A DNA stretch of 62,916 bases, filler included, from Stramenopiles sp. TOSAG23-6 (Eukaryota): the NCBI GenBank assembly GCA_900128565.1. It is 10 parts of 10 records of this genome, joined end to end, with 100 filler letters (N's around TTAATTAATTAA, not from the genome) between each part and the next. Parts side by side here need not be neighbours in the genome. Positions count along the whole stretch, not along the records: positions 9,573 to 19,013 come from LT636368.1; 9 more parts are not named here. One strand, 5' to 3'. The position numbers and the translations under genes were made by a program. The notes under the pieces were generated by a model. The model saw only the letters and a program-made list of their open reading frames with translations. It had not been told where the DNA came from and made no database searches. Positions 2,325 to 53,258 of the stretch are shown here, piece by piece; the stretch's first letter is position 1; each line of letters begins with the position of its first letter.

Positions 2325-3178
2325 ATGTTAACTGTACAAGTTGGTCAGTGTGGGAATCAATTAGGAACTGAAATTTTTTGTTCTGTTGCAGATGAGTTGA
2401 AAAAACCTCGGCCTCTCGCAATTCCAAGTTTTGATGAATTTTATCGTCGTAGTGTTGAAAGTTTTTTCCGTGTAGACTATGATCATGACACACGATCAAG
2501 AAGAATTGGAACTGGAAATGATGGCAGGTTAATTGCAAGATCAATATTAGTCGATACAGAGCCTCGCGTAGTTGCAGGTTGTTTTGCAGCAGCAGAGCGG
2601 AAGGGTACGTTTAAATTTGATCATCGTAATGCAGTTACTCGTGAAAGTGGCTCTGCCAATAACTGGGCTCATGGTTACTGTTTGCACGGTCACACATTGA
2701 GAGAAGAGGTTGTTGAACTCGCACGACGTGAAATTGAGCTTTGTGATTACTTTGGTGGTTTCCATATACTTATGAGTGTTGCCGGTGGAACTGGGTCTGG
2801 CGTCGGAACTTTTCTCACAGAAACTTTACGGGACATATTTCCGTCACCGCGTATTTTAAATTCAGTAGTTTGGCCATATGATAATGGCGAAGTAATTGTC
2901 CAAAACTATAATGCATTATTGACACTATCAAACGTACGTTTTATATGAATTTCCAAATTATTTTTTTTTCATACGAAATTCCGTACCTAACAATTTTTTT
3001 TGAAATATTTTTTCACAATACATGTACAAAACGTTTCTGATAGTATTTTAGTTTTTGAAAATGACCACATTCACGAAATGTGTCGAAAGCTTTATCATAT
3101 AGATAAGCCTCGATTTTCAGATATGAATAACGTGATAGCACGGCATTTTTGTTCCACTTTTCTTCCATCATTAGACAT
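2325..3178 (+). CDS. TUBD1: Delta-tubulin, N-terminal part (no continuation after the second intron)
   Basis: QVGQCGNQLG, SILVDTEP, SGSANNWAHGY, SVAGGTGSGVG and GEVIVQNYNALLTLS|VQNVSDSILVFEND are characteristic of delta-tubulin. Confidence 0.85.
2934..3023 (+). mobile_element. Introner-like intron, GT...TAC-AT
   Basis: TCA AAC|GTACGTTTT...CACAATACAT|GTA CAA AAC restores the tubulin frame. Confidence 0.85.
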
Positions 3179-3280
3179 GTATGTTTTTTTTAATTTTTTT
3201 TCAATTTCGAATTTTTTTTTTCATACGAAATTTCGTACCTAACAATTTTTTTTTTTTTGAAATATTTTTTCACAATACGT
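3179..3280 (+). mobile_element. Introner-like copy at the point where tubulin coding stops
   Basis: Full family consensus. The downstream sequence is not tubulin. Confidence 0.7.
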
Positions 3281-3647
3281 GTATGGAATGATAACCTAGA
3301 GTCTTGGGGATATGTCCTTTTATCACTCCACGAATGTATCATCTTTTTTGTTTTGGTACACGTCATTGACTTGGTTAGGTTACATATATTTCTAATTCAT
3401 ACAAAACAATCTACTTATTCCTATTTAATGGCACTAACAAAAAAACAAACTGCACTTCGTCGAGCAAGACGAGAAGAAAAGAAAATAAATACAAACAAAC
3501 AACANGTTATTCCTGATGATGATATACCTACGAAGAATACTGATGAAATGAAAGAAGTTATTTCTGATGATGATATACCAACAAAGGAGGATAAAGATGT
3601 GGACTCTGTATAAATCCATTATAATAGTGCATCAATAAATGAATACC

Positions 3648-5859: not shown

Positions 5860-8800
5860 TCAACGGATTTTTCGTAGAGGCAATTTTTTTTTTTGCATTA
5901 CTTTGGAGAGGTTTCCGGTTGATGGATCACATTTGTACATCTCACCAGGTTGCTGAAGCCAGTGGGTGTTTGTCGTCAGTGCTACATTTACATTGTTGTT
6001 TTCTTCGACGATGATGACAATATCGTCTTTTCCTATATTGTGGTAGTTTGTATTTTTTTCGTTTTGTACGCCTGGGCTTTTATGGTGGAATGTCCTATAG
6101 TGTTGTTTACTGTCATGTAGTAGGTGGATGTCGACTTTATGTTGTTTAGCCGCCGAACTTAAGAAGTCTGCTGTGTTTGATTGTTTGTCTTGTGGAATAC
6201 TTTTTATTATAGTCTTTGTCGTTAGATGATGATTCGGATGCTGCTCATTTTTTATGTTAAATGCAATTGCCTCTGCAAACATGTGTATCACATTCTCGAC
6301 TCTTCTGCATGGGAACAGATGCCGCTGTAAAGTAGCTACAGTTTGTTGTAGGTTTTTATTCACTTTGCCTTGACGTATGCGTCCTTTATCACTTTCATAA
6401 AACTTGTTGATTGCTTTTTGCGGTCGTGGCTTTCTGCTACACGTCCTTTTTGCTGGTGATGGCGACATGTGGATGTGAAGACGTTTACGTTTTAGTGGGG
6501 TGGGAGGTGCTTTAGATTTTTTATGTTGCGTAGTTCTTTGCATGGACTGCCGCCATTTCTCGCGCCTTTCCCTCTTTGCTGCTTCTCTTTGTTCCTTTTT
6601 ATCTTTTAAAAACTTAATCCGTGCTTGTTGCCTTTCGTGTTGCTCTTTTTCCTTTCTTTCCTGAATTTGATGAAGTTTCTTCAGTGCGTTCTGTTTTAAT
6701 AGGTTACATTTTTCTTGTATTGCTGCACTTTTTAAAATGATTTGTGTTTCATTGGTGTTTGTTTTCATGATAAAGGTTCTTCCTGATGCAGTTTTCAGCA
6801 TTGTGTCAGCTTGAATAGCTTCTAGATGCGCCTCTAGTGCTAGTATGTCATACCTTGCTTTTGCAAGTTTTTCCGCGTCGAGTGGGCGTGATAGCATTAA
6901 GTCACCAAGTCGTCGGCATCTGGAAGCGCCGGTGTAGGCCATACTTTGATATGGGCATGGTAGTTTCTTTGCTGAACATTCTCGTCCTATGAGTTCGTCA
7001 AGTGTTAAGTGTGATAATAGAAATGCATCTAGACTCATTCCCTGTCTTGAGTGGATGGTACCACAGAAATTCTGAGCTATTGGAACTTGAAACACAGATA
7101 CGTGTACAATACCAGCACCGCAGCACTGTAGTTCTTGTTTGTTCCAGTGCGGAATAACGATAGTTTGGCCTTGTGGTAGTCCTGGAGTTCTATAATGTTT
7201 TGTGTGTTCAAGCTGGTGTTCCAGAATAATGCAGTCTACATCTAATGCGAAGACGTAGTGGACACACTCTTTCTGATCCCACATGACTGACGCGTTTGGT
7301 TTTAGTATGATATCTACTATCTTCACAGGTACTCCATTCTTGTGGGCAGAGTCATTCGCATGGTTTTCGAGAAATTTGTACTCGCCGCCGGCAATGCAGC
7401 GCAAAACTGGTGCAAGATGTGGATTTAGATTCTTTTCCGTCATGTATTTTAGATAGTATTGTGCATCTTTTAGTCTTTGTCTTACTGAGCCTTTTTTCGT
7501 GTGTCTTACATTTGCGACAATCTTTAGAAAGCCTCGTTGTCTCCAGTCTTGCACACTTGGTTCTGATGTGCTTCCGCCTTCTGCATGTACATGTTTTCCA
7601 GCTGCTGCATTCCTGCAGTTGAATGTATGGTAATTAAGCCTGTCTTTTACAGCTTGGAAAGGGACGCCTGCTCGTAGCTCACTTTTGCAGTAGTGGACGA
7701 AGATGTTGTCGCCACTTACTGCTTCCACGGCGGCAGTAAATGATATTGGTTGTTGTCGCTTGGGTATTCCGTGTAGTCGTTCTTTTCGCTCTTTTTTAGT
7801 TTCGCACTTGGGGATGTGGTACTTTGCGCTTTTGAATATACATTGTCTCGTTGTGCAGTTGTCTGTTGGGCGTGAGTATATTTCGATCCATGTTTGTCCT
7901 TCTTCAAAGTCTGCATGAAGGTCAGTTTGACATCTCCATATATTATTCAAAATTTCACCGTTTCTACACCATTTGGTCGTACTTCCTTTTGTACTACCTG
8001 ACATATACCCGTTAGTGCAGAAACCAATGTTTATGGTGTCGTCATTTTCTGTTGAATGTGTTAGTCCAATAACTGCATGGGTTTGGTTAGCACTTGAATC
8101 AGTTTGTGTCTTATTTAGTATAAACGGCCATAAACTGTTCCCACGACGGTGACACCCTCCAACTTTCAGGAAGTGACCTCCTTTGTCCTTGGCAGCTGCA
8201 GCGCAGTATCCTTTGCGTGTTGACGTAGATGTAAAGAGTTGTGCATTAAACCATCCTGGATTTACTTTTCCTTGCTCATCGTGTATTGAACATGAATTAA
8301 GTGCATCAATATCATCATCTGTCAAGGTCGACGTCCTCATTCGTGAGAGGATGTCTTGTAAAAGATTGTCATGTAGCGCTCTGTAGTTTTTGTCTAGTAC
8401 GACAGCTGTGTTAATTCCTAACCGCGACACAGTTTCTTGAAATTCGTCAGTTCGGCTTCCTAGAAAAAGGTCTGCACCGCGAGATATCTTGCGCGTCCTG
8501 CATGTTTTTTCTATACAAGCATGTAGAGGTGTTCCACCGCTTGGCGGTAGCTGATGAAAGCCTGCTACAAGGACGACGTGGACTCCACCCCAGGGTCTTT
8601 CATAATCGATTGTGCTGTCGCAGTCTGAAGGTGGCTCACATGACATACGTTTGAGTTCTTTTACTTGACTTTCCAAATGATAGAGATCCTCAAGCGACAG
8701 CATTGAGGCCTCGTCAATAATTAATGTTGTGACTGCTGACCACTCTTCCAGTCGTTCGTTGTATTTTTTCCGCGCGGCTTGTGATTTTGGTATTTTGTAG

Positions 8801-9366
8801 CCGCCATTCTCTTTGTCAGGGATTAGTCCTACAGCTGAATGCCATGTACGCCCCCGGATCAGACACCCTGCGAGTCCGGTTGTTGCAGTCAACGCAAGGC
8901 TGTTGTCAATACCCCATAGTCTTGCAAAACGGTGAACTTCGTCAATTACGTTTGACTTTCCTGTACCACCTGCCCCACTTAATACCATGCGCAGGTGGTG
9001 TGTTTTGTAGTTGTTGTAGTTTTTCACGTTTGACCACATTTTCTTTGTGTAATCGATCTCAAAAGTCGATTCAAGAATAGCTTCCATGGCATACATTTCG
9101 GACACTTGTAGGGTGTATTTTCTTGCTAGTGATAATAGCATTGCTCTAGCTATATGTTCGAATGCGACACATTGCTTGCCCTCTAGTTGAGAATGTTTTA
9201 AGAAATGTGAAATTGACGGACGCGGTCCCATCTGGACGCTCTGTCTCGTTGAGGTTGCATCATCTAATTTCTGGTCTGTATGATTGTCAGTCGAAGGTTG
9301 CTGTAACAACTTCTGGTCTTCTGCTTCTGTCCACAATCTCATGCCCTCTGATCTTAACACCTCCAC
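5860..9366 (-). CDS. PIF1-family (SF1B) helicase, Helitron-like, 5'-truncated
   Basis: LSGAGGTGKS, TATTGLAG...GRTWHS, LIIDEASML, PWGGVHVVL..FHQLPP, NYRA, TIHSRQGMSLD and AYTGASR. Intronless and more GC-rich than neighbouring genes. Confidence 0.75.
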   Translation of the reverse strand: MEVLRSEGMRLWTEAEDQKLLQQPSTDNHTDQKLDDATSTRQSVQMGPRPSISHFLKHSQLEGKQCVAFEHIARAMLLSLARKYTLQVSEMYAMEAILESTFEIDYTKKMWSNVKNYNNYKTHHLRMVLSGAGGTGKSNVIDEVHRFARLWGIDNSLALTATTGLAGCLIRGRTWHSAVGLIPDKENGGYKIPKSQAARKKYNERLEEWSAVTTLIIDEASMLSLEDLYHLESQVKELKRMSCEPPSDCDSTIDYERPWGGVHVVLVAGFHQLPPSGGTPLHACIEKTCRTRKISRGADLFLGSRTDEFQETVSRLGINTAVVLDKNYRALHDNLLQDILSRMRTSTLTDDDIDALNSCSIHDEQGKVNPGWFNAQLFTSTSTRKGYCAAAAKDKGGHFLKVGGCHRRGNSLWPFILNKTQTDSSANQTHAVIGLTHSTENDDTINIGFCTNGYMSGSTKGSTTKWCRNGEILNNIWRCQTDLHADFEEGQTWIEIYSRPTDNCTTRQCIFKSAKYHIPKCETKKERKERLHGIPKRQQPISFTAAVEAVSGDNIFVHYCKSELRAGVPFQAVKDRLNYHTFNCRNAAAGKHVHAEGGSTSEPSVQDWRQRGFLKIVANVRHTKKGSVRQRLKDAQYYLKYMTEKNLNPHLAPVLRCIAGGEYKFLENHANDSAHKNGVPVKIVDIILKPNASVMWDQKECVHYVFALDVDCIILEHQLEHTKHYRTPGLPQGQTIVIPHWNKQELQCCGAGIVHVSVFQVPIAQNFCGTIHSRQGMSLDAFLLSHLTLDELIGRECSAKKLPCPYQSMAYTGASRCRRLGDLMLSRPLDAEKLAKARYDILALEAHLEAIQADTMLKTASGRTFIMKTNTNETQIILKSAAIQEKCNLLKQNALKKLHQIQERKEKEQHERQQARIKFLKDKKEQREAAKRERREKWRQSMQRTTQHKKSKAPPTPLKRKRLHIHMSPSPAKRTCSRKPRPQKAINKFYESDKGRIRQGKVNKNLQQTVATLQRHLFPCRRVENVIHMFAEAIAFNIKNEQHPNHHLTTKTIIKSIPQDKQSNTADFLSSAAKQHKVDIHLLHDSKQHYRTFHHKSPGVQNEKNTNYHNIGKDDIVIIVEENNNVNVALTTNTHWLQQPGEMYKCDPSTGNLSKVMQKKKLPLRKIR

Positions 9367-9368
9367 CC

Positions 9369-9472
9369 GCTTTCATCAGCTACCGCCAAGTGGTGAAACA
9401 CCTCTACATGCTTGTACAGAAAAAACATGCAGGACGCGCAAGATATCTCGCGGTGCAGACCTTTTTCTAGGA
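9369..9472 (+). repeat. Inverted, slightly diverged copy of helicase segment 8458-8561
   Basis: 104-nt reverse-complement match with 3 mismatches. Encodes FHQLPPSGETPLHAC...DLFLG. Confidence 0.85.
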
Positions 9473-11123: not shown

Positions 11124-11450
11124 AAATACAGATACACTAAAGTTCTTAAAGTTCTGTATATATTCTTAAGAATAGATGAGATTCTTACTAAAGATGGGTG
11201 ATTGGTTTTGTAACGCTGCGGCACTGGATACTACTACTACTACTGTACTGGTCGCTTGTAAAAAGAAACTCAATTTTTCGTCAATTTTTCTGAAACGGAT
11301 CTTTCAAAAATCACGAAATATAATAAAAACCATGTCTTCGGGGATAATAAATCTAAAAAAATATAATCAAAAATCGACATTTATTGTGTAAATAGTATAT
11401 AATTCATCAAAGTTGAATCTATTTTGGATGTCCAATAATGACAGTCAAAA

Positions 11451-13338
11451 TTATTCATGGATTTTCTTTGCCCGTGCAAACAGAGAATTAATTACTGTAC
11501 CCATATAGTGTGAAAAAATATTCCAAAAAGAAATCGTTAAGTATAAAATTTTCTATAAAAAAATAAATTGAAATTAGAAATTAAAATTCCAAAAAGAAAT
11601 CGTTAAGTATGAAATTTTCTATAAAAAAATAAATTGAAATTAGAAATTAAAATGAAGGATGAAAAACCTACATATTCTTCACAACTCCAATTGCACCCTT
11701 AAATACTCTATCTTCGTTTTGTGGTTCAAAAATAATTAAATGTCCACGTATTGTGAAAAAATATTTCAAAAAAAAATCGTTAGGTACAAAATTTCGTATG
11801 AAAATACACGACCTTGATCCAAAATGCCTTCAAATTTCCCGTCAAGAATCATCTGTGATAATTTATTTTCAACACGTTTCACTGGAAGTCTCATTAATTC
11901 AGCAACATGAGAAATTTCAACACGAGAATGTATCGTGGAAAAATATTTAAAAAAAAAAAAAAAAATTGTTAGGTACAAAATTACCTATGAAAAAATAAAT
12001 TCCAAATTGAAAAAAAATAAAACATACATATGGTTTGATAATTCGATGAAGATTTTGTTCGAGCATCTTTTCATGCAAATTACCCAAGTGGGCTTGAACC
12101 ATGACGTCACCAGAAAGTTGATCTTTGTATTTTTCAATGACACTTTCAAGGTATATATTGTGAAAAATATTTTTTTTGTAAAAAAAATTCGTTAGGTACG
12201 AAATTTCTTACCAAAAAAAAACAAAATTGAAATTCATCATAAAAACGTACTTTCAAGAGATTTTTCTTTATATGCTGCACCTACCGCTCGCATAGCTTCG
12301 ACTTCAATTTTTCCAGGACCCGTTTTGGAGTAACAAGCCATGTGTTTAGACGAAAGGATGTATTGTGAAAAATATTCTTTTTTGTAAAAAACAAATGTTA
12401 GGTACAAATTTTCATAGGAAAAAAATGTAAGGTTAGGGTTTTATGACAACGTACATGCTGGATACTTCTGAGAGTTTATCATTCATAATTTTACTGAGAA
12501 GCATATATTTTAGACATAGGACGGCCTTTGCCTCCAAACGTTCACTAGCCGCTGGATTATCGTTTTTTTTGTCTTTAAAGTTATTAAAAGCTTCGAAAGC
12601 TTCAAAAAAATACGAATATGCAGTTTTGTACTCATGTAACTCGGCATGAAGAATACCAGATTGCATATCAATCTTTCCTTGAAGTGTAGGTGTAACATAC
12701 ATTGAGCTTGCATTACTACGTGCAGTTGTAAGAGCAGCTCGANCTTTTGGTAAATCTTTCAGTTGGTGATACACACGGCTTTCTGTAAGAGAAATTTCTA
12801 CCATGAGTTGTTTATCATCAAGTTTTTTAATTTCACGTACAAGGGAACGTAACTGGCTCAGAGAATCCTTATACTGCTTTCGCTGCAATAAAATACCACC
12901 TAAACGTGCTTGTATGCGGTGACGAAGGTATGTACGTTTTTCGGTGTAACACCAGTTTATACACTCTCTACAGAGTCTTTCGGAAGCTTCCTCTGCCCCG
13001 GCACCTGGAAGAGAGCCAACGCGATCTACTAGCGACTTTACTACTTTTGCCGTTTTGGCTTTTGGAAGGATTTGAAAAAACGGTTGAATGTCTTTCAACA
13101 GTTGACTCAGAGCGTTGACATCACCTTTGCGACCGTGGATTTCTCCCAACATTAAGATGCTACGAGACTTAAGCGAGATGACGTCTTCAGACTCATCGTC
13201 AACGTTTAATATATCACGAAATATTTTCTCAGCATCTACAGTATCACCATTTCTAACCTTTGCCTTTGCTTCCTCAAACTTTGCATCTAATGGTGATATG
13301 TTCTGTCGTGGTTCCTCATCAACATCCATGGCAATCAT
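11451..13338 (-). CDS. RPN6: 26S proteasome lid subunit RPN6/PSMD11, 6 exons
   Basis: [55 protein letters not shown] and [16 protein letters not shown]. Five family introns; TAA at 11451-11453. Confidence 0.95.
11503..11671 (-). mobile_element. Introner-like intron 5 of RPN6 (TSD AT), with an internal tandem duplication
   Basis: AAT AT|GTAGGTTTT...CACTATAT|G GGT gives [10 protein letters not shown]. Confidence 0.8.
11746..11807 (-). mobile_element. Introner-like intron 4 of RPN6, 62 nt, GT...TAC-GT (TSD GT)
   Basis: GGT CGT|GTATTTT...CAATACGT|GGA CAT gives ILDQGRGHLIIF. Confidence 0.85.
11928..12027 (-). mobile_element. Introner-like intron 3 of RPN6 (TSD AT)
   Basis: CCA TAT|GTATGTTTT...GATACAT|TCT CGT GTT gives KPYSRVEI. 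Confidence 0.88.
12153..12250 (-). mobile_element. Introner-like intron 2 of RPN6, GT...AT
   Basis: GAA A|GTACGTTTT...CAATATAT|AC CTT GAA gives [12 protein letters not shown]. Confidence 0.8.
12358..12454 (-). mobile_element. Introner-like intron 1 of RPN6 (TSD AT)
   Basis: AGC AT|GTACGTTG...CAATACAT|C CTT gives EVSSILSSKH. Confidence 0.85.
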
Positions 13339-13443
13339 CGTGAGAAGAGGGAAAACTCTATAAATAAAATTCTCTCTCGAGTGTCTCTTTCAAGTTGAAC
13401 TTGACGTCGTAATTATTTTTTTCTTTTTTTTCGCGCAACGAAA

Positions 13444-17023: not shown

Positions 17024-18958
17024 GAGTAGTATTCGAGCCTCTAGAAATTCTTTAGCTCTATTGTCAACAAGTACTGCTGCTGCTGTAGATTGGCCTGGAA
17101 GTAGCAATATCTTAAAGCCGATTTGCAAGGGTACTTCAGGTTATGAAAAACTTGAACTGAACTGGTCTGAAAATATAAGACTTACGAATTCAACAAATAC
17201 AATTGCAACACCCTCAACGTTAGAAGAACTTCAGGATATTGCGCGGGCGGCAAAAGGCGAAGGAAGCTTACGAACTTTGGGTAGTGGTCATAGTTTTAAT
17301 TCAATATGCTGCCCAAATGAAGATGGTGGAACTCTTATTTCGTTATCTTGTTTCTCAGCCATACACTCATTTGATTTAGATTCAATGACAGTATCTGCAG
17401 AAGGCGGTGTGACATATGGTCAACTCAATCGCTGGCTTGCACCTCGAGGTCTTGCTCTGCGGAATATGGCGTCTCTTCCTCATATCACAGTATCTGGTGC
17501 CATTGCCACTGGCTCACACGGATCTGGCATGGAGTTACAAAATTTAGCTGCAGACATTGCTGCACTTGAATTTGTCCGTGCTGATGGTTCTACGATACAA
17601 GCAAAGCGAGATAATTTTCTTCCAGGAAATTCGGTGTCTGTTTTCTGGAATAGTAGCACACATGACGTTGACTCAAATAAAACAATTCCATTAGAAGCTG
17701 CTGCTTGCCATTTAGGTTGTCTTGGTATCATCTCAAAAATAGCAATAGATGTTGTTCCTAGTTATGACATTAGACAATGTGTCCTTCAAGATGTACCTTT
17801 TATGTCATATATAGACAACTTCGAAGCCATATGTCATAATTGTCACGGTATTTCTGCATTCATTGACTTTTCAAAAGATAATGTTGAAGTTTTGTGGATT
17901 CGAGATAAAATCGATAAAAGTAACACAAAAGAAAAGTCTAGATCAAATTTTTCTTCAAAAATGAATTCTCATGGTCAAATTGTACCAGATGATAAAAGTA
18001 TGTACGTTTTCAATGTTTAATCTACAGTTTGATTTCATTTTTTTTGAAAATTTTGTACCTAACAAAAAAAATCAAAAGTTTTTTCAAAAAATATTTTTTT
18101 ACTCAATAGGTACGTTTTGAAAATTAAAAAAAAAATTCTTTTTATATTTTTAACAAAATTTTTTAACTAACAAATTTTACTCCAAAAAAATTGTTTTTTT
18201 CACAATACATCTATGCTACTATTGGAGGAAACGTTTTACGAAAACCTGTACCTTTTCTAGAATCTGGATGTGACGTGTCTACAACCCGTCAAGGTCCATG
18301 TACGTTTGATATGAATTTCTAATTTAATTTTTTTTTGGGTTTGTTTTTTTTTGGTTTCATACGAAATTTTGTACCTAACGATTTTTTTAACTACATTTTT
18401 TTTCACAATACATCTTTTGAAGTCTTACCATTTTTTACTGAAACAGACTCAAAACCTCCGGGTCGAGATACAAAAATGCCGAATATGGCATTACATTCAG
18501 AGTTTCATGTAAGTTTTCAACGTTTCATCATTCAGTTTTTACAAATTTCGAATTTATTTATTTTTATTTTTTCAACGTTTCATCATTCAGTTTTTACAAA
18601 TTTCGAATTTATTTATTTTTTTTTTTCAACGTTTCATCATTCAGTTTTTACAAATTTCGAATTTATTCATTTTTTTTTTCATTGAAAATGTTGTACCTAA
18701 AGACTTTTTTTTAAACTTTTTTTTTTACTATTTTTTTACAATACATATTCCATTTAAGCATGGGAAAAACGCCTTACTCGCAGTTTCAAAGATTGCTCGA
18801 CATTGGCCTGGTTGGGGGGATTGGAATACAGATTCAAGAGATCCTTCTACTGCTGGTATGGTTGTCATGTCAGAAATTAGACTTGTAAAAGCTGATTCAT
18901 TTTGGATGTCACCTCATTATTCAAATACAAGTTCTTCATTTCTTTCTATTCACTTTAC
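17024..18958 (+). CDS. FAD-linked oxidase (alditol oxidase / aldonolactone oxidase family), 3'-partial
   Basis: NWS, GSGHSFN, ASLPHITVSGAIATGSHGSG, LGCLGII, SEFH|IP, EIRLVKADSFWMSP and SIHFT. Confidence 0.85.
18002..18210 (+). mobile_element. Two head-to-tail introner-like copies (18002-18109, 18110-18210) with no exon between them
   Basis: AGT AT|GTACG...CAATAG|GTACG...CAATACAT|C TAT. Removing both copies restores the frame. Confidence 0.75.
18300..18413 (+). mobile_element. Introner-like intron (TSD AT)
   Basis: CCA T|GTACG...CAATACAT|CT TTT gives GPSFEVLPFF. Confidence 0.82.
18509..18746 (+). mobile_element. Introner-like intron (TSD AT) expanded by a 3x internal tandem repeat
   Basis: CAT|GTAAGTTTT...CAATACAT|ATT CCA. 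The unit TTTTCAACGTTTCATCATTCAGTTTTTACAAATTTCGAATTTATT occurs three times. Confidence 0.8.
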
Positions 18959-19174
18959 GTTTTATTTTTTTTTCAATTTCGAATTTTTTTTTCATACGAA
19001 ATTTTGTACCTAANNNNNNNNNNNNNNNNNNNNNNNNNNNNNNNNNNNNNNNNNNNNTTAATTAATTAANNNNNNNNNNNNNNNNNNNNNNNNNNNNNNN
19101 NNNNNNNNNNNNNTTTTTCATACGAAATTTTGTACCTAACGATTTTTTTTTTGAAATATTTTTCCAAAATACTT

Positions 19175-19653
19175 ACTCGAAAACACACGAGAAATAGTCA
19201 ATGAATCGGTTGAAACACTTAAAGAAGAGGCGACAGAGATACTGTACGTTTTCATCATACAGTTAAAAAATAAATGTACCAAAAAAAATGTACCTAACTA
19301 AAAAAAAATTGAAATATTTTTTCACAATACATGTACGTTTGATATGAATGTCTAATTTTTTTTTCATACGAAATTTCGTACCTAACGATTTTTTTAACTA
19401 ATTTTTTTTTTCACAAAACATGGAAGTTGCAGAAGAAGCAGAAGAAGCTGTGAAAGGTCTTGTCGACGAAGTAACAAAAGATGCAACTTTATTATTATCC
19501 GGAGAAGACCCAGAATTTCATGGAGTCAAAGTACGCAACATTGTAAAGTTTGTTATACTGTGGACAGTCGTTGGTGGTTTTCTATACATGACTAGCAATA
19601 CAAATTCATCGACCGACTTAAAAAAAAAATCAAGAAAAAAGAAAAAAAACTGA
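19175..19653 (+). CDS. C-terminal fragment of a tail-anchored-type membrane protein
   Basis: Acidic helix, then hydrophobic FVILWTVVGGFLYM, then a basic tail. Exons 19175-19243 and 19422-19653. Confidence 0.55.
19244..19421 (+). mobile_element. Two head-to-tail introner-like copies (19244-19332, 19333-19421)
   Basis: ATA CT|GTACG...CAATACAT|GTACG...CAAAACAT|G GAA. Both copies are 89 nt; the frame is restored only if both are removed. Confidence 0.78.
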
Positions 19654-19951: not shown

Positions 19952-22271
19952 TTATTTATCTTTTTTGCTCAATATTCGATTGTTCAAAACATCATCAAAG
20001 ACTAATGCACGGAATGGTGCAGCAGCGCCCATACATAAGCTATTGTACCGGTTAGAACGAGAATTCATTCTTAGTTGGTACCTTGAGTCTATGGAATGAG
20101 TATGATTAAAATTCAGTATTTTTTCATGATGAACTTGTTTCTCTAGATATGCATCCATGTACATAATCAAAAATTCTAATGGATTTGTATAGTCGTTGAA
20201 ATGGTAATCATGAAATTCATCATGGCGCTCTTCTTTTAAAACATAATTACTCTCAGAATCTTTCCGTACTTCACATGTATTGTGAAAAAATATTTTTTTT
20301 TGTAAAATTTGTTAAGTACAAAATTTACTACGAAAACAAAACATAAATTAAAAATTGAAAAAAAACTAAAACATACCTTTTGTAACAGACCAGTCGATTA
20401 AGTGAGCACACGTCAACAAACTATACGAGAACCCAGTAAATGTCATGCAATGAACACTTGGATTTTTCGTACAAAGCATTCTCAAATTATTGATTTGCTT
20501 ATGTCGAGAAGCACTCATCTCATTTTTTTCTATCATTTCTAATTGGGTACTTTCAATGAATATTTGTATTAGTTTAGCTCTAGATAAAAGAAGGCTAATT
20601 CCAAATGTTAATGCAAAATGTTTCCACTCATTCAAATCCATTGTATTCGTTTGTATCGAGCGTTCTTTATAAGCAAGTATTGTGAAAAAATATTTAAAAA
20701 CAAAAATTGTTAGGTACAACATTTCGTGCCAAAAAAATAAATTAGAAATTCATGATGAAAACGTATCGAAATAAAAACTCAAAAAAAAAAAAATTGTTAG
20801 GTACAAAATTTCGTACGAAAAAAAAATAAATTAGAAATTCATGATGAAAACATACACGTTTTCGGGTCAAAGGAATATTTCGGTATGACAATTTCAAATC
20901 AAGTTTCGAATCTACTTTTTTTGGTTTTGCTACTAAGCTCAAATTATCACTGGCTTGAAGGCCCAATTCAGAAAAATGTTTGAAAATAGATTTTAAACTA
21001 GGTTGATATCGTTGCACAATTTCCTTCACATGAACATTGTTCCTCATTTCATCTACAACATCACTATTATAACTCCAATTTCCATCTTTGAAGATTCGAT
21101 TAGTTAAAAGATACATTAATTTTAGAGAATCCTCGTCGTCATCCATGTGCTTCAAACTACGTGCTATCGTACCATTTCTCATAAAAACAGCTAACTTTCG
21201 AAGCGCATTTGCAAATTGAGAAAATGAAAGGCAAGTTTGGTTCACTACATTTTGCTTTACACGACAAGCTGTCAACTCAGGCTTTATATGAGAATTCTTT
21301 TTTTTGAATATTTTTGTATTTATGTGTTCACTGAGGGCACTGTTATATATTTTCTCTGCATTTAGTACACTAATTGCAATCAACTCACTTAAATCACCTC
21401 TTTCATTTCTTACTTGCATGTTACTTAGCAAAGAATGATCTTTGAGAAATTTCATAAAAGAAATTCGATTCATATACGATAATTCAAAATTTTTTCCAGA
21501 AACTGTATAATAAGTAAATACAGTTTGCAATAATTTCTGTACATTTGACCAATAATTTCCTGCAACAAATTTCGAAGTTTTGTTTTGGTTTGTCATAAAT
21601 CTTTTTACAATTTTGGGTACCGGGAATGTCGTTGATGTTTTTTCATCTTGAGATACACCCAAAAGAAATGGTGATGATTTTTTGTTAGTTACAGAATTTG
21701 GTTCAAATTTTCGTTGGGTTTTAGGTTTGGTTACTTTGCGAAGTTTTCTTTCTAACTCTTCTTCTATTTGTGAAAATATCTTCACATTCTTTTCTTGTTT
21801 TGTTTTTTTCTTTAGATTTTTCCCTTCTTTTTGTAGCTTCTTTACAACCTGTGCAAGTCTCTTTTCTTCCTTTTTTTTGTTTTTTTCTTCCTTTTTTTTG
21901 TTTTTTGCTTCCTTGTTTTTTAGTGTACGCTGTTCTTTATTTTTTTCCTTTGCAATCTTTATCGCTTCCTTTTTTTTCTTTTTTTCCAGTGCAAGTTGTT
22001 CTTTACTTTTTTCCTTCGTAATCTTTAGCGCTTTTTCTTGCGTTTCAATATTTTCCCTTCTTGATGAACCACCTTCGTTCAAAAATGAAAACGCATTTGG
22101 GTCATATAAGTCTTCGTATTGATATTTATCGATTTTATTTACTTTNGTCTCTACACCGTATTTCTCTTCTAAGTCATCTATTGAGTCTTCGCCTATCTCG
22201 GTAGGATCGTCCGAGTCATACTTTTTTTCTATAGCTTTAAAGACTTTATCAACTTCGTCTGTTACATCCAT
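19952..22271 (-). CDS. Hypothetical protein, lysine-rich coiled coil plus helical domains, 3 exons
   Basis: Three ORFs join in frame through introns 20675-20855 and 20275-20376. Confidence 0.65.
20275..20376 (-). mobile_element. Introner-like intron, GT...TAC-AT
   Basis: AAA G|GTATGTTTT...CAATACAT|GT GAA is in frame. Confidence 0.75.
20675..20855 (-). mobile_element. Introner-like intron made of a duplicated element, GT...TAC-TT
   Basis: Two GTACCTAAC cores. CGT|GTATG...CAATACTT|GCT TAT is in frame. Confidence 0.72.
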
Positions 22272-28480: not shown

Positions 28481-28704
28481 GTATGTTTTATTTTTTTTTT
28501 TAACAAAAAAATCGAATTTTTTTTTCGTACGAAANNNNNNNNNNNNNNNNNNNNNNNNNNNNNNNNNNNNNNNNNNNNTTAATTAATTAANNNNNNNNNN
28601 NNNNNNNNNNNNNNNNNNNNNNNNNNNNNNNNNNTCGAAATTTGTTAGGTACAAAATTTCGTACGAAAAAATAAATAAATTTGAAATTCATAATGAAAAC
28701 GTGC

Positions 28705-38154: not shown

Positions 38155-39914
38155 ATTTGAAAGATGTTTAAACAATTGTTTTGTTTGTCCATGAGATGAT
38201 TCCTTCAAATGCGTATCAACTTGGATACACTCACTATTATTACCAGGTAACGTAACATTTGTAGGTTTCGTTGGCTTAACAAAATCATCCTCACAAAGTA
38301 TCAATGGAATTGATGCGACACGTGGCATTCCAATGTTTTTATCCCGTCCGTATACAAATAAATATCTCTGAAATACATCCATATCTTCAAGTATCATATT
38401 ATTGACTTGAATTTCTTGTAAATTATCCACACATAGCTCATCATTCTTTTGTGGATTTTTTATATCGACATTTGTATAAAAAACTTTGAATTCTGAATTC
38501 TTTTCTATTTTTGTTAATTCTGAATTCTTTTCTATTTTTGTTATATTTCCATTAGTCACTGAGTTTCTCATAGCATCACCTTTTTTAGTTCCAAAGTTCT
38601 CTTTAATACTTACATTACTCATTATATACCAAATCCCATCATTAAGTAATGTAAAAATATATTTCAATTTTTTTTTTAAAGTTTTGTTAGGTACAAAATT
38701 AACTACAAAAAAAATATTTAAAAAAATTAAAAAATGTNNNNNNNNNNNNNNNNNNNNNNNNNNNNNNNNNNNNNNNNNNNNNNNNNNNNNNTTTGTTAGG
38801 TACAAAATTAACTACAAAAAAAATATTTAAAAAAATTAAAAAATGTTAAACGTACGTGCTCTATATAACACTCAATACCAGGTTTGCGCTTCCATAATAA
38901 TGATGATGAACTTGAACTGTATTTTTTTGTATTTTTTGTATTTCTTGTATTTCTTGTATTTGATACATCACTCATAATTTCCTTGGAAACTTTATTCGAC
39001 TTTATCGTGGTATTGTTTTGACCATCAAGTATCCGGATTTCTGTTGATGTCTTTGAATTTGCATATAATAAAACATATTTTTTATCTTTCGTCCGTTTTA
39101 CATCTAAAAAGAAAGCTGGGTTCGATTCTTCGTACATTAGTTTACCTATATCGTCACTACTATTTAACAAGGAATCTTCATAAATACGATGTGCCATTAA
39201 TTGATATGGACGGCCGAGTTGATCAGGTGATGTGTAAAACAAAGTATAAACCTTTTTGTTCCCTATACTTTCATTACTTGTACCCCACTCAACTGAAAGA
39301 GCATTAGGAATGACACAAATTGTTTCATGAGAACGTAAATCTTTTACATGAATTTGATATTGATCAAGACCAGTGAAATCAACAGCAAAAGCAAGGAAAT
39401 TATGATCCGGAGAAATCGACATACAACCAATGAAAACACCATTGACGTCTTTCTGAAGAAGTATGTTTGGATCGAGTAAAATCTCTTCTTTTGATTTATT
39501 TAAAGACTCATTATTTTTACCATTACTATCAGAAATACGACAACGACAATACTGCAGAAGTTCGCCGCCTGGAATTGCTCGAGTGTAATAGTGCCACCCA
39601 TCTATATGTTCACCAACAGCTTTTTCTTCTGGAGAAATCAAACTTCGCATCTCCTTTTGAAGTACATTTTGAGTATGATAAGTATCACGCATCCAAAGCT
39701 CGGTGCGAGCATTCTCATCTTGAATAAACTTGGATGATTTTTGACTAGTAGGGTCATTTAACCATGAAAAAGGATCACTTTTTTCTGAATTATTATTGTG
39801 AAAGGCTCGATTGAGCTTCCAATTCAAATTCAAACTAGTAAGAGTTTGCAACCTCGAGCGAATAAGACTTGTCCTAGTCATACATTGGAAGCTGCGAATA
39901 CTGCACGAAGCCAT
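38155..39914 (-). CDS. Oligopeptidase B / S9A peptidase with a probable mitochondrial presequence, 3'-partial
   Basis: DPFSWLND...ENART, EEILLDPN, SPDHNFLAFAVDFTG and SKTSTEI. EH|NDGIWYIMSN spans family copies at about 38645-38855. Confidence 0.85.
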
Positions 39915-47516: not shown

Positions 47517-47748
47517 ATGTATTGTGAAAAAATATTTCAAAAAAAATCGTTAGGTACAAAATTTCGTACGNNNNNNNNNNNNNNNNNNNNNNNNNNNNNN
47601 NNNNNNNNNNNNNNTTAATTAATTAANNNNNNNNNNNNNNNNNNNNNNNNNNNNNNNNNNNNNNNNNNNNTTTTTTCAAATTCGATTTTTTTTTCGTACG
47701 AAATTTCGTACCTAACGATTTTTTTTTGAAATATTTTTTCAAAATATA

Positions 47749-48827
47749 TACCCGTTGACTGCAATTACTTGGTTCGGGGTCGATGATCCTACACATATGG
47801 TACGAATTCCTATTTATTCTGCTATTACGGCAATACCCTTTTCATATGCACATGGTAATGGTGATACAGATACGTTTGTCTTACACAGTGCTTGTACGTT
47901 TTCATCATGAAGTTATCATCTATATTGTTCTACAATGAGAATTGTATACAAACAGATTTTGCAGATTTTTTTCAACGAATTTCGTATTTCTAAATTGTTT
48001 TTCACAATACATATTATTTATATTCATAATTTAGTTGCTAATTTGTTTTTTTTCGTATTTCTAAATTGTTTTTCACAATACATATTGGATTCATAATTTA
48101 GTTGCTAATTTAGTTTATTCACGTTACGATTTAATTGCTCCTGAGGTAGAAAAAAAGATTATTAATGTTGAACGTCAATATTTCAAAGATGTAGCGAGGA
48201 TTGACCAACAAGCGATGAAAATTTTAAATGAAAAATCAAATAATACAAATTCACAAATATCTAAAGTTGTAGATTTAATTACACAATTTTCTGTTACTAC
48301 TGGAGACAATGTATGTTTTATTTTTTTTTTTTTTAACAAAAAAATCAAATTTATTTTTTTTTTCATACGAAATTTTGTACCTAACAACTTTTTTTAGATT
48401 TTTTTGAAATATTTTTCCAAAATACATCACGTGGATGATTGGATTAAATTTTGGAAGCATCTCACTGTGAAATATAGAGATGGTCTAATTACTACACCAA
48501 GTGATCCACCCGAACGATCGATCGACTTAAAACCACCTGCAAACACAGAAACTGTTGGATATGTACGTTTTCATTCTAATATCGAATTTATTTTTTTCGT
48601 ACGAAATTTTGTACCTAACAAATTTTTTTAGATTTTTGAAATATTTTTTAATCATCCATTGTTCATCATGGCTTGAGCGAGTCTCTCGTGAGTCAAAAGA
48701 GCACTATGAAGTAAAGCAAACAAATTCATTTACAACAACATCGGTTACTTCTTTTGTAAGTGATGTAGACTCAGAATTGATTCAGCGTTTACAAGAACGT
48801 AAAGCGAATCTTTTACATCGGCGTTAA
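47749..48827 (+). CDS. Peptidase C69 (dipeptidase), C-terminal part; mirror copy at 55914-56992 (-)
   Basis: WFGVDD...IPIY, SA|YWIHNLVANLVYSRY and LTVKYRDG. Introns 47894-48083, 48311-48427 and 48563-48659. Confidence 0.75.
47894..48083 (+). mobile_element. Introner-like intron with a duplicated 3' end
   Basis: GCT T|GTACG...CAATACAT|AT TGG gives SAYW. An earlier CACAATACAT with a decayed exon copy lies at about 48003-48045. Confidence 0.72.
48311..48427 (+). mobile_element. Introner-like intron (TSD AT)
   Basis: GAC AAT|GTATG...AAATACAT|CAC GTG is in frame. Confidence 0.8.
48563..48659 (+). mobile_element. Introner-like intron (TSD AT)
   Basis: GGA TAT|GTACG...ATCCAT|TGT TCA is in frame. 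Confidence 0.72.
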
Positions 48828-49080
48828 TATATACAAAAAAAATTATATCGTTGTGTCGTGAATTAACATTNATTTTTTTCGTACGAAATTCCGTACCTAA
48901 TATTGGTTACAGATAGCTAGGCTAATTCAAATGTATTGTATTACACACGGAGAGTTTGAAATAAAAAACTATTTGCATTCGAATTATTAAAACAAAATAA
49001 ACATGATTAAAAACAACAAGATGTAACAAATTTACTATATTCTGTCTAGATAAATTGAAAATAGCATTTCTGTCTCAACA

Positions 49081-50249
49081 TTAATCTTCACCAGTTTCGA
49101 GGGCGCTTGCACCAGAAATAATTTCAATTAACTCGGTGGTAATACGTGCCTGTCGAATTCGGTTATACGCCAATGTAAATTTCTCAATCATCTCCTCAGC
49201 ATTTTTTGAGGCGTTTTCCATAGCTGCCATTCTTGCAGACTGTTCAGCAGCGTTACCATCAATAATCGCACCATAGAGACTACCAGCCATAGCAAACTCA
49301 GAGAGATTCATCAACGCTTCAGATTTATCCTCTGGCTCAAATTCATAGTTGAATAAATGTTTTGGTGTTGCATCAAATCCNGGTTCAGCATCTGGTGGAG
49401 GAGTCATATTTTTTAAGTGCATTTTCTGCTGTTCGTACGCAATCATACTGACGTAATGATTATAAATAATAGTACATTCATCATATTCAAAATCCACCAG
49501 ACGCGCGGCAAATCCTCCGCATGTTCCAAATGTAATTGGAACTTTGCAATGTTGGTCAACAGAATACAAAATATCTTCACCATGAGTCCGGTTCAATTGC
49601 CCTCTGCCTTTATCACCAACAGTAACGATTTTGACATCGTGACCTTGTGATTTCAACTCATCCACATAAATACGAGTCTGTTTTGCCACCTGAGAGTTGA
49701 TACCGCCACAGAGACCACGATCAGCGGAATTACAAACGACCATGTACTTTTTTGGTCCGTCTGAAGTATCAACTACATCTTCATCTTCAAAGTCTGCAGG
49801 AGGTTGCATAGTGCGAGAAAATATGGAGCCAAATGCTGCCCCATCATTCATCTTTTCCTCATCATACTTCATGCGGGCAGCGGAAACCATTTTCATACTG
49901 TTCTTTGGAAAAGACGTTAACAAGTTAAAAAATAAGTTCTTTAGAATTCAGAATATTTACCGAGTTTGACTAGATCAATATCAAAACAATTCAAACATAG
50001 ACACATATAGAAATAGAGAGTAACACCGAAAAAATGGGAAAACAAAGTAACAAGATAGAGACTGCAGTGGAAATAAACGCGTAAGAAGAAGGAAAATGCA
50101 ACTTACCTCTTGGTAATCTTTGCGATATTTCCAGTTGCTGCAATACGATCACGCATTTCCTTTTCAGATGCGAATCCACGCGCAACAGTAGCACGAGGCG
50201 CCATTGACGCAACGCAACTACGACTAATCATCGCTGTCCTAGAAAGCAT
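49081..50249 (-). CDS. ATP3: Mitochondrial ATP synthase gamma subunit, 2 exons (canonical intron 49898-50106)
   Basis: KITKS|MKMVSAA, ADRGLCGGINS, EQSARMAAMENASKNA and RQARITTELIEIISGA. Confidence 0.95.
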
Positions 50250-50516
50250 TCTCGGTCAATGAAGTTTACTATACTAATATGGACACAGCGCGAAAGACAT
50301 GCGGTTGTCGTTGTCGGTCGAATGTGACACAATTTTTTGATAATGTGCACGCGTTGACCACTTTAAAATCCTAAAATTTCGTGTAGGACGTGTTGATGAC
50401 ACGTGGCAAAAATGGAGCGAGTTTTGCATTCTCGAATTAATTCATAAACATTTTTAATTTTTTAAAATATTTCATATTAGGCAAGATCACAATTAACGCA
50501 AAAAACACCACAAGAA

Positions 50517-51482
50517 ATGACAACCAACGTGCCTGTTGGCCGAAAGAACCAAAAAACGATGACACAGCTTGACATCAGCGCACTCAATCTAAAAGCAGAT
50601 GATAACGCTAAACTAAAAAACTTCATATCACAACTCGATGCAGACGGAAATGGCAAATTAGACGAAGACGAAGTTGTACAAGCTGTAATATCGATGTTAT
50701 CTGATCAACAATCTGCAAAGAGGTTACGCTTCTACACGATTATTGTAACAACAATTTGTTTTGCTTTGTGTGCTGTTGTATTCGGATTATCGTTTGCAGC
50801 AACTGAGGTGAGTAAAGAATGTTTTGTAAAGGACAAAGCATTGAAAGATTCGAAAGGAAATGTCGTCGCTTCTCGACGGCAAGAGTACGTTGTCAAATCG
50901 TTCGCGAAGCACGATGATTCGACGGATACAATAACCGTTGACATAAACCAAAATGGGCGACGATTGGCAACCGAAACAAGAACTTTGGTGGGTTTCATAC
51001 CTTGCTTAGAAGTTACAAGTGCAATTGAGAGACTAAAGGAAGGCGACCATACNGTAACTGTCCCACTTGAGCTGCCACAAGGTAATGGAATCGTCAATAA
51101 TCTAAACCTAGAGCTCACTGCAAAAGAAAGTTGGAGTTCACCAAATCAATTTGGTATAGCTGATATAAAAGAATCCTCCGATAGAGGAGGCCCATATTCT
51201 GTTGTTTGCAACGTTAATACTTGTCACAATAGTCAAACAGGCACATGCAAAGTGTATTCAGGGCGGATAGAACATCGTCGTAGGCTACAAAAATTGCAAG
51301 GAAATACAGAGATGAAACAAGATATTGATCTTTTGCATTATCTTCACTCGAAGCCAGAAGAAACCAAAGCAGAAAGAATCGAACGTTACATGAAATTCAG
51401 CGCTGCTACATTTGCTACAATTGCAGCAACTTCTGCTGGATTATCAGGACGAATCTTACAACCACAACGTGGAAGCTGTTGA
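50517..51482 (+). CDS. Single-pass membrane protein with an N-terminal EF-hand and RRL motifs
   Basis: DADGNGKLDEDE; TM segment IIVTTICFALCAVVFGLSFAA; GRRLA and RRRLQ. Confidence 0.7.
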   Translation: MTTNVPVGRKNQKTMTQLDISALNLKADDNAKLKNFISQLDADGNGKLDEDEVVQAVISMLSDQQSAKRLRFYTIIVTTICFALCAVVFGLSFAATEVSKECFVKDKALKDSKGNVVASRRQEYVVKSFAKHDDSTDTITVDINQNGRRLATETRTLVGFIPCLEVTSAIERLKEGDHXVTVPLELPQGNGIVNNLNLELTAKESWSSPNQFGIADIKESSDRGGPYSVVCNVNTCHNSQTGTCKVYSGRIEHRRRLQKLQGNTEMKQDIDLLHYLHSKPEETKAERIERYMKFSAATFATIAATSAGLSGRILQPQRGSC

Positions 51483-51747
51483 AAGTTGTAAACTTCTTCT
51501 GCATTATCCGGACGAATCTTAAAGAACGGAGGAACATGTTAAAATTTATCAAAGTAAAAGCTTGGTTGATACGACCTAATACATTTTTTTTTCATACGAA
51601 ATTTCGTACCTAACGATTTTTTTAACTATTTTTTTTTTCTTCCGTCTCCAGTACTATCAAGATTGTTATAAGTGCATATACAACACACACCCAAGAGTAG
51701 AACAAAGCTGTCGATAATACAAAAATCTAATCTAAAAAATCAATTTA

Positions 51748-52095
51748 TTAATCGTTTTTATACATATCAAATCTCTTGAATGGTGCAAGTTTTGTCTCAT
51801 TAGCCCTCAATTGCTCACGATACCAACGTTTCTTAGCACTCTGCTCTGCTCTAAATCTTTCTTGTTGTTTTTTATAATTTGGAAGTTCATGAGCTACTCC
51901 ATGTCGCAAGTCTTCACTTGTAATTAAACCCTTTAGTAAGCGGTCCTGTCTAGGAAATGGCTGAATTTTTGTTTCTTCTTGTCGCAATTGCTCACGATAC
52001 CAACGTTTTTTTGCATTTTGATGAGCCGAAAATTTATGCTGATAATATTTAAAATCTGGAACTTCGTCACCGTACTTTGAGTATTTCATTCTCAT
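51748..52095 (-). CDS. 59-aa-repeat protein, short paralog
   Basis: Shares the repeat units with 52499-52993 but has a different N-terminus. Confidence 0.5.
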   Translation of the reverse strand: MRMKYSKYGDEVPDFKYYQHKFSAHQNAKKRWYREQLRQEETKIQPFPRQDRLLKGLITSEDLRHGVAHELPNYKKQQERFRAEQSAKKRWYREQLRANETKLAPFKRFDMYKND

Positions 52096-52993: not shown

Positions 52994-53258
52994 TAAATTG
53001 ATTTTTTAGATTAGATTTTTGTATTATCGACAGCTTTGTTCTACTCTTGGGTGTGTGTTGTATATGCACTTATAACAATCTTGATAGTACTGGAGACGGA
53101 AGAAAAAAAAAATAGTTAAAAAAATCGTTAGGTACGAAATTTCGTATGAAAAAAAAATGTATTAGGTCGTATCAACCAAGCTTTTACTTTGATAAATTTT
53201 AACATGTTCCTCCGTTCTTTAAGATTCGTCCGGATAATGCAGAAGAAGTTTACAACTT

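Follow-up and report, generated by a model that had tools for sequence, protein, structure and literature searches.

The introners of Micromonas pusilla, Aureococcus anophagefferens and Pelagomonas calceolata provide one splice site themselves while the duplicated target provides the other, and the element is spliced out together with one of the duplicates (PMC11282704); in the stramenopile cases described in these sources the acceptor is always the canonical AG (Pelagomonas preprint, 10.1101/2021.10.25.465678). In Fritillaria borealis and F. pellucida, introns derived from miniature inverted-repeat transposable elements (MITEs) take their 3′ site from a duplicated exonic TAC, with a Y-A-Y end and a U-rich tract (PMC13326754; PMC11282704). 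3′AT is the commonest acceptor in these species (44% in F. pellucida and 34% in F. borealis), and the introns are taken out by a U2-type spliceosome whose U2AF is duplicated (PMC13326754). Amoebophrya introners and the nonconventional introns of euglenids and hemistasiid diplonemids have non-GT-AG ends and short direct repeats at their borders, together with inverted repeats of 8-20 nt or extensive pairing, and no conserved terminal dinucleotides (PMC7789003; PMC12621601). Here we describe five elements that interrupt the RPN6 (PSMD11) gene of the uncultured marine organism Stramenopiles sp. TOSAG23-6 in a stretch of DNA of 62,916 nt (assembly GCA_900128565.1; parts of ten records joined with filler; the whole stretch is hereafter called the window). 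We consider it likely that they belong to a family of short non-autonomous elements, introner- or MITE-like and lying in the sense orientation in genes, which are removed as U2-type spliceosomal introns with non-AG acceptors.

No description of non-AG introns in stramenopiles was found in full-text searches of the accessible literature. In their available parts, papers on marine stramenopile single-cell genomes treat introns in general terms (PMC5778133, PMC5269757, PMC8163842), one of the three reporting few but long introns on the basis of gene predictions. A large introner survey, as far as its available text states, kept mainly non-canonical families only when RNA alignments confirmed them (PMC12130899); it would have missed such a family in an unannotated assembly.

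Five introns in the RPN6 gene

A minus-strand open reading frame (ORF) at 12433-13389 encodes the N-terminal 294 codons of RPN6/PSMD11, and 11503-12454 corresponds to the 3′ half of the gene, the rest of the protein being found on four short open stretches downstream with five AT-rich elements between them (Table 1). Excision of every element, starting at its GT and ending 2 nt beyond the conserved element end, left a frame of 453 codons with zero internal stops; the unspliced sequence runs into a stop after 301 codons and holds 19 stops in all. The first-pass annotation had already placed five non-AG elements of 62-169 nt at 11503-12454 and held that this single rule gives an uninterrupted, full-length RPN6. 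Its coordinates turned out to be exact, since intron 1 begins at 12454 and intron 5 finishes at 11503, and the rule does what was claimed for it. As to the identity of the gene, an RPN6_N domain was found (PF18055, E 5.1e-26; 91.7 bits, where the cutoff is 26.5; profile positions 4-117 of 117), and the Pfam PCI domain is divided between exon 3 (19.3 bits, alone below the cutoff of 22) and exon 4 (35 bits), the latter matching human PSMD11 chains at residues 343-381 and yeast RPN6 at 357-393. Over its entire length, the 453-aa product also aligns with its closest full-length relative, P0002 (456 aa, annotated as 26S proteasome regulatory subunit N6), which bears PF18055, PF01399 and PF18503. 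A PCI domain followed by a C-terminal helix, in a protein of ~420-460 aa, is the pattern of RPN6/PSMD11; the helix is here assigned by way of the P0002 alignment.

Direct evidence for removal came from seawater. Matches to the region 11400-13400 were present in seawater metagenomes, in poly(A) metatranscriptomes of seawater and in small DNA runs of a coded 'organism A', and three RNA runs (X7, X8 and X9) and one independent DNA metagenome run (X3) were compared with the locus. In RNA contig X8 record 18, positions 12280-12357 are joined to 12455-12518 with zero other letters, that is, intron 1 is gone to the base. RNA contig X7 record 9 (303 nt) consists of 11807-11929, 11671-11744 and 11430-11501, with 62 nt and 169 nt skipped that are introns 4 and 5; its 1-nt offsets reflect a shared-G ambiguity that leaves the mRNA unchanged. 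X7 and X8 are poly(A) metatranscriptomes of two different studies, and the spliced RNA contigs show 0 other letters across exons 4 and 5. At the DNA level, a 3020-nt contig of X3 (record 8) runs unbroken over 12160-13400, intron 1 included, and a 266-nt contig (record 1) covers 11400-11641, i.e. exon 6 and 139 nt of intron 5. Introns 1, 4 and 5 are removed exactly from poly(A) RNA, and introns 1 and 5 are retained in DNA. The precise removal that the earlier claim called for is seen directly in poly(A) RNA for introns 1, 4 and 5; for introns 2 and 3 it is predicted from homology. The X7 contig also reaches 2 nt into the ambiguous AT that ends intron 3, its first 34 letters being unplaced, which is compatible with removal of intron 3 but is no proof of it. 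None of X7, X8 and X9 gave cover within exon 3 (12070-12136), from which no inference is drawn, and a query with exon 3 among longer proteins for same-species transcripts over joints 2 and 3 found nothing. In X9, a non-poly(A) library, low-depth contigs tile intron 5 unspliced; these could be pre-mRNA or DNA carry-over, and again no inference is drawn.

The DNA contig of X3 record 1 and the spliced RNA contig of X7 have in common both of their differences from the window (11454 T>C and 11487 A>G). These shared single-nucleotide polymorphisms (SNPs) point to one natural haplotype, with the intron in its DNA and without it in its poly(A) RNA. They also bear on the idea that the spliced-looking RNA stems from an intronless allele, paralog or retrocopy elsewhere while the interrupted copy is dead, an idea to which the search for a second copy, covering the window, leaves some room. 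This explanation seems hardly credible, given that the RNA matches exons 4 and 5 with 0 other letters and shares both SNPs, which lie in exon 6 and the 3′ untranslated region, with DNA that carries intron 5. Moreover, all six exons are open and conserved, the window holds one RPN6 locus, which is itself expressed and spliced, and the excision rule also works in other genes, as seen for PTPA and, in the frame test described below, for 11 of 15 copies. The presence of introns 1 and 5 in X3 DNA and their absence from RNA also shows that the elements are not missing from bulk DNA, and DNA-level excision of the kind known for ciliate internal eliminated sequences (IESs) was rejected on this ground.

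Alignment of the spliced translation with orthologs, a check that had been proposed with the original claim, gave a gap-free match to P0002 at all five joints. Among the 119 other RPN6 matches listed, 105 were full-length proteins (at least 400 aa), and none of these 105 is gapped in the 11-residue spans around joints 2-5; the span at joint 1 contains four extra alignment columns in which the window sequence is gapped too, so that the joint test is not clean there. The joint residues agree with the homolog majority (Ile in 75/105, Ser in 103/105, Gly in 104/105 and Met in 67/105). Furthermore, since the PCI profile is matched at 2-37 in exon 3 and at 38-75 in exon 4, it continues exactly over intron 3. 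We also enumerated 180 canonical GT/GC...AG alternatives (39, 56, 15, 30 and 40 for introns 1-5, respectively). The model built by the rule scores 1415, and the best canonical alternatives reach 1399, 1396, 1386, 1342 and 1372 for introns 1-5, none of them equalling the model.

Table 1. Coordinates of the RPN6 gene, its exons and introns, and related splicing features in the window
Feature	Coordinates	Strand	Description and evidence
RPN6/PSMD11 coding region	11451..13338	-	ATG at 13338, stop at 11453-11451; 6 exons, 453 codons when spliced
Exon 1	12455..13338	-	294 codons + 2 nt; RPN6_N domain; single N at 12744; 63% identity to P0002
Intron 1	12358..12454	-	97 nt, GTACGT...AATAC+AT; RNA joint 12455-12357 in X8 record 18; spanned by DNA contig X3 record 8
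AG within intron 1	12377..12378	-	Between the branch-like box and the 3′ end; unused as acceptor according to the RNA contig
Exon 2	12251..12357	-	Alignment to P0002
Intron 2	12153..12250	-	98 nt, GTACGT...AATAT+AT; flanks AA / AT; homology only
Exon 3	12028..12152	-	PCI profile 2-37
Intron 3	11928..12027	-	100 nt, GTATGT...GATAC+AT; homology and PCI profile continuity 37|38; hint of removal in RNA
Exon 4	11808..11927	-	PCI profile 38-75
Intron 4	11746..11807	-	62 nt, short family copy, GTATTT...AATAC+GT; RNA contig X7 record 9
Exon 5	11672..11745	-	P0002 alignment and RNA contig
Intron 5	11503..11671	-	169 nt, GTAGGT...CACTAT+AT; RNA contig X7 record 9; 3′ part in DNA contig X3 record 1
Exon 6, coding part with stop codon	11451..11502	-	Spliced frame
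Branch-like box TACCTAAC	12397..12404 (intron 1); 12191-12198; 11968-11975; 11779-11786	-	
Branch-like box TACTTAAC	11602-11609; 11536-11543 (intron 5)	-	
Ordinary intron, ATP synthase gamma gene	49900..50108	-	209 nt, GTAAGT...TTAAC...AACAG, non-family; duplicate at 54633-54841 (+)

Acceptors, cut registers and the route of removal

None of the five introns has the 3′-terminal AG of U2-type introns: introns 1-5 end in AT, AT, AT, GT and AT, and marker searches gave their element ends as ...AATACAT, ...AATATAT, ...GATACAT, ...AATACGT and ...CACTATAT. Owing to short direct repeats, there are 3 to 6 registers with identical mRNA in which each of introns 1, 3, 4 and 5 can be written (e.g. GT..AT, TG..CA or AT..AC), and when all equivalent registers were compared no AG-ending register was found for any of the five introns. 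The unlike flanks of intron 2 mean that it has a single register, GT..AT. The first-pass annotation was silent on the nature of the elements and on the 2-nt direct repeat behind this register ambiguity. The first AG downstream of introns 1-5 ends at +56, +10, +38, +34 and +8, respectively, none of these distances being a multiple of three; for intron 3, this agrees with the previous statement that the nearest AG lies more than 30 nt away, and its use would shift the frame too.

The other signals of a U2-type intron are in place. The 5′ GT lies within a consensus complementary to U1/U6, which reads GTAYGTTT family-wide, and a YTRAY box (TACCTAAC or TACTTAAC), a putative branch point as judged from the sequence, is followed by a U run. 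The distance from the last branch-like box to the 3′ end is 33-40 nt in the five RPN6 introns. Intron 5 contains a 66-nt tandem duplication (11520-11653), which is why it has two TACTTAAC boxes. The gamma subunit gene of ATP synthase supplies an ordinary intron for comparison, its position following from two exons with 89-91% identity to P0121. It is of the GT-AG type and lacks the family blocks, indicating that the blocks are not simply general splice signals of the organism and that canonical and non-AG introns coexist in it.

In the mechanism that we propose, each copy would supply a strong 5′ site (GTAYGT), a branch-point box of the YTRAY type and a long U tract, and the 5′ cut would presumably fall at G1 of GTAYGT. 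The 3′ cut would lie 2 nt past the terminal block, after the second copy of the 2-nt flanking direct repeat, so that the acceptor would be non-AG and an AG closer to the branch box would be bypassed. Splicing would take out the element and one repeat copy, and the pre-insertion sequence would therefore be restored. Removal would be performed by a U2-type spliceosome. Across the family the distance from box to 3′ end varies between 31 and 56 nt, making a fixed ruler from the branch box unlikely; since the distance to the terminal block is constant and that to the box is variable, the block is the better candidate for setting the 3′ cut. We infer that this cut is set by the terminal block and that neither an AG nor a constant spacing from the branch box determines it.

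The same removal could be written in a shifted register, in which the introns begin 2 nt upstream, at the first repeat copy, and end at the ...AC of the element. Most would then be AT-AC introns (intron 4 being GT-AC), with GTAYGT at +3 to +8, in keeping with the known A(+1)/C(-1) compatibility. AT..AC for introns 1 and 3 and GT..AC for intron 4 do yield identical mRNA, AC precedes the flank in 15 of the 18 curated copies of the family (see below), and AT-AC is the best known non-GT-AG pair according to the available text of PMC13326754. We nevertheless think this register unlikely. A perfect U2-type 5′ site at the element start is obtained in the GT register only, the shifted introns starting variably with AT, GT, TT or AA, and copies ending in ...TAT (introns 2 and 5, and the copy at 36361) would become AA-AT, AT-AT and GT-AT introns. 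The one RPN6 joint at which the two registers differ, joint 2, gives Asn in the GT register (6/105 homologs; Asp in 24) and Tyr in the shifted one, which is outside the eight commonest residues, although this is a weak argument.

A further alternative is that the elements are removed by something other than a spliceosome, either by an endonuclease and ligase or guided by structure, as in euglenids and hemistasiids, or at the DNA level like ciliate IESs with 2-nt repeats. Non-AG ends combined with short direct repeats at the junctions are found in such systems in the available text of PMC11282704 and PMC12621601. Folding of six introns, however, gave z-scores of -0.01, -2.62, -0.68, -0.68, 0.55 and 0.81 and no conserved structure; the value of -2.62 stems from an internal stem between an A run and a U run and not from pairing of the ends, and no stable pairing joining the intron ends was found in any of the six. 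With five of the six z-scores between -0.68 and +0.81 and the ends unpaired, the hairpin class of euglenid, hemistasiid or Amoebophrya introns was rejected. Strong GTAYGT sites, the YTRAY box and the U tract, the strictly sense orientation, and the presence of the elements in DNA contigs (from the single-cell-type runs and from the independent metagenome) together with their loss from poly(A) RNA all speak against non-spliceosomal removal, to which we give very little credence.

The repeat family and its host assembly

The 12-mer TTTGTACCTAAC occurs 39 times in the window (at most one mismatch) against 0.30 expected, the maximum in shuffled sequences being 3 (n=100), and the 3′ block TTTTCACAATAY is present 27 times, where 2.98 would be expected. 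Four of the 39 matches are second copies within a perfect inverted duplication of the assembly. Both element ends were found by script in 18 of the 39 matches, the others having diverged ends or N gaps. Alignment of 19 complete copies revealed a common layout, that is, a GTAYGTTTT start, a variable AT-rich middle and ~70 conserved columns made up, in this order, of a U-rich part, YRTACGAAAT, TTTGTACCTAAC, a U run, GAAATATTTTT and CA(C/A)AATAC. The conserved terminal block can be written ...TTTTCACAATAC or ...CACAATAC. Over the 71-column 3′ module the mean pairwise identity is 0.75 (171 pairs from the 19 copies), and conservation falls to background straight after the second base past ...ATAC (position +2). 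Many copies are introns of unrelated genes (RPN6, PTPA, an ATPase, an oxidase and others), as expected of introners, within these 62.9 kb. An Rfam scan of the window gave no match.

Flanking sequences were analysed in a curated set of 18 copies, from which the mis-called copy at 18052 and the assembly duplicate at 56367 were left out and to which RPN6 introns 4 and 5 were added. The 3′ dinucleotide is AT in 12, GT in three, TT in two and AA in one, and the dinucleotides on the two sides of the element are identical in 13/18 (shuffle mean 7.39, P 0.0008), including four of the six copies with a non-AT 3′ flank. This 2-nt direct repeat may be a target-site duplication. In a crude ORF-extension test with 15 decisive copies, the joined frame was longest at offset +2 in 11. 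In the PTPA gene, the second case checked by homology, the Pfam profile runs over 1-186 before the copy at 1289 and over 183-292 after it. As to orientation, 31 of the 39 matches are co-oriented with the largest neighbouring ORF; of the three that appear opposite, one belongs to the minus-strand member of two convergent genes and the other two are a duplicated copy beside an N gap. Five lack a long ORF in the vicinity, RPN6 introns 3 and 4 among them, and no clear antisense copy within an exon was seen among the 39.

Several arrangements of family copies were observed in addition. Head-to-tail or nested copies, possibly twin introns, occur at 19319-19421 (+), 20675-20860 (-) and 18002-18110 (+): at the first of these the second copy begins directly past the AT that closes the first, and at ~18090 a copy end ...AATAG adjoins the GTACG of the next copy. 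Two copies, at ~18975-19014 (+) and 28655-28700 (-), have no GT at the 5′ place and show TTACGTTTT and CACGTTTT in place of the usual GTACGTTTT; both enter N gaps, and if they are spliced the 5′ site would be flexible too. At 51603 (+) and 53138 (-) the branch box is kept and the 3′ half replaced, with an end ...TCTCCAG that resembles a canonical acceptor on a family 5′ half. A degenerate copy lies at 58096, outside any ORF. The summed word depth of the family core (11735-11801) is 112865 in DNA run X3 against 7.6 for single-copy parts, a figure that is not a copy number and to which other organisms may contribute, and 24969 in poly(A) RNA run X7 against ~4-9 on exons, likewise not a copy number. 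The family is very abundant in DNA and RNA of the environment. A 17-nt core pattern had six single matches in viral contigs and 31 in prokaryote genome contigs, none of which is a family copy and all of which were left aside; by our estimate this is chance level for collections of such size.

Another possibility is that nothing here is mobile, and that the blocks are lineage-specific splicing signals of unusual length and strictness, accompanied by AT-rich filler, the flanking AT reflecting a preference at exon ends. In favour of this, the conserved blocks overlap the functional parts of the intron (5′ site, branch box, U tract and 3′ end), neither an empty site nor an autonomous partner was found, and the inverted termini are very short. 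It appears distinctly improbable to us, because ~70 columns with a mean identity of 0.75 are shared among introns of unrelated genes, the non-family GT-AG intron in the window lacks every block, and non-AT flanks match in the four of six copies noted above. The head-to-tail and nested copies and the internal 66-nt duplication, the degenerate copy outside ORFs, and the very high core word depth in X3 (rough, and open to contributions of other organisms) also count against it.

The reading that we favour, namely introner- or MITE-like elements removed as non-AG spliceosomal introns, has several observations to contend with. Introns 1 and 2 outscore their best canonical alternatives by slim margins (16 and 19 units), and joints 2 and 3 are uncovered by RNA contigs among the matches listed. 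AT-flanked copies would give the same mRNA from an AT...AC intron, so that the cut register is ambiguous. The flanks are unlike in five of the 18 curated copies, and the 2-nt repeat could alternatively be a splicing requirement. Four of the 15 decisive copies in the ORF-extension test prefer offset +1, including RPN6 intron 3 (54 vs 53 codons), in a test that is noisy because AT-rich introns at times read open; moreover, for the copy at 3179-3280 (+) in a tubulin-like gene (2325-3300), which has flanks AT / GT, +2 leads to an early stop and +1 is open. The terminal inverted repeats are only GTAT...ATAC, i.e. 4 nt (6 with AT flanks), and the Y at element position 4 shows no covariation with the 3′ end. 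Finally, no empty site or insertion polymorphism was found, scans of metagenome contigs with P0002 and with alignment A1 yielding no confirmed orthologous locus.

The identity of the host was approached through protein matches. The organism-named matches of RPN6 are plants and scattered protists at ~41-47% identity and are uninformative for placement. Unnamed environmental proteins related to ATP synthase gamma show 54-88% identity, and among its best 120 matches all eight that bear an organism name belong to the stramenopiles (six diatoms, a thraustochytrid and a kelp); the lineage of three of the eight was checked, and the other five we take to be stramenopiles as well. An origin from a larvacean tunicate, an idea raised by the Fritillaria-like 3′AT, was discarded in view of these eight matches. 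A marine diplonemid was likewise discarded, since the ATP synthase gamma matches are stramenopile and the introns unstructured; diplonemid single-cell genomes with predicted non-canonical introns are described in the available text of PMC12621601.

Features of the assembly itself were also noted. The segments 47570-52065 and 52676-57171 form a perfect inverted duplication of 4496 nt whose arms, 100% complementary, lie 610 nt apart; several genes, ATP synthase gamma among them, and four family copies are thereby present twice. The duplication is less likely to be biology than an artefact of assembly or a chimera that arose in whole-genome amplification. The window contains 979 N and a 12-nt linker with stops in all frames, and many gaps start inside family copies (e.g. 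near 19014, 28640, 38700-38790 and 47570); the assembly seems to break at the family repeat. The N gaps with their stop linker and the inverted duplication look like amplified single-cell DNA. Elsewhere, an intron-free ORF of 1170 codons at 5860-9372 (-) encodes a PIF1-like helicase domain (PF05970, E 2.7e-15) in a stretch with a G+C content of 0.40-0.42, against ~0.26-0.38 in most other 2-kb bins, and may be part of a mobile element.

Comparison with known intron systems

The acceptor AG is among the most invariant signals of eukaryotic gene expression, and here one conserved gene has five introns ending in AT or GT, the removal of three of which is seen in RNA. This points to an organism able to splice transposon-like insertions in an unusual way. 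Since only the 3′ end departs from the rule, with a textbook 5′ site, branch box and U tract, the family would offer a clean natural system for studying the choice of a 3′ site without AG. The findings support a coupling of transposon-derived introns with relaxed splice-site choice, possibly in a third major eukaryotic group. In practical terms, gene callers that require AG will break or truncate genes of this organism, as exemplified by the database protein P0001, which consists of exon 1 with read-through into intron 1, and the intron densities reported so far for uncultured flagellates of this sort may accordingly be underestimates.

U12-type introns have the 5′ site RTATCCTT and a short distance between the branch box and the 3′ end. 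The family resembles them in its highly conserved branch box and in the tolerance of non-AG 3′ ends but differs from them in its 5′ site, in the 31-56 nt between box and end and in its long U tract; with GTAYGTTT as the 5′ site and such a distance, U12-type introns were rejected. With the introns of Amoebophrya, euglenids and hemistasiids the family shares non-GT-AG ends and short direct repeats. It has no stable fold, which sets it apart from them, and it possesses a conserved 5′ site, a branch box and a U tract. Like introners, it is a short dispersed repeat found in sense orientation in many unrelated genes; unlike in the stramenopile introners cited above, its acceptor is AT, GT, TT or AA, its repeat is 2 nt long and its inverted termini measure 4-6 nt.

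The closest functional match is Fritillaria. In both cases a non-AG 3′ site comes from a duplicated flanking copy, here a putative target duplication, a Y-A-Y end is present (CAT or TAT in 12 of the 18 family copies) and there is a U tract. Fritillaria, however, is an animal in which the 5′ site is mostly AG and the exonic repeat is TAC, whereas here the host is a stramenopile, the 5′ site is a perfect GTAYGT and GT-AG introns exist alongside. More tentatively, and with slightly more doubt than confidence, we propose that these introns represent a whole class in which a transposon-borne terminal block sets the 3′ site, the second catalytic step taking place at a fixed 2 nt beyond it whatever the dinucleotide, and that they constitute a second independent origin of Fritillaria-like AG-independent splicing. 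If this is true, the mRNA would be freed precisely of every insertion, exons could take up thousands of family copies, and splicing of the Fritillaria kind would exist in a protist that keeps a perfect GT 5′ site and GT-AG introns, in which case altered 3′-site factors may be involved.

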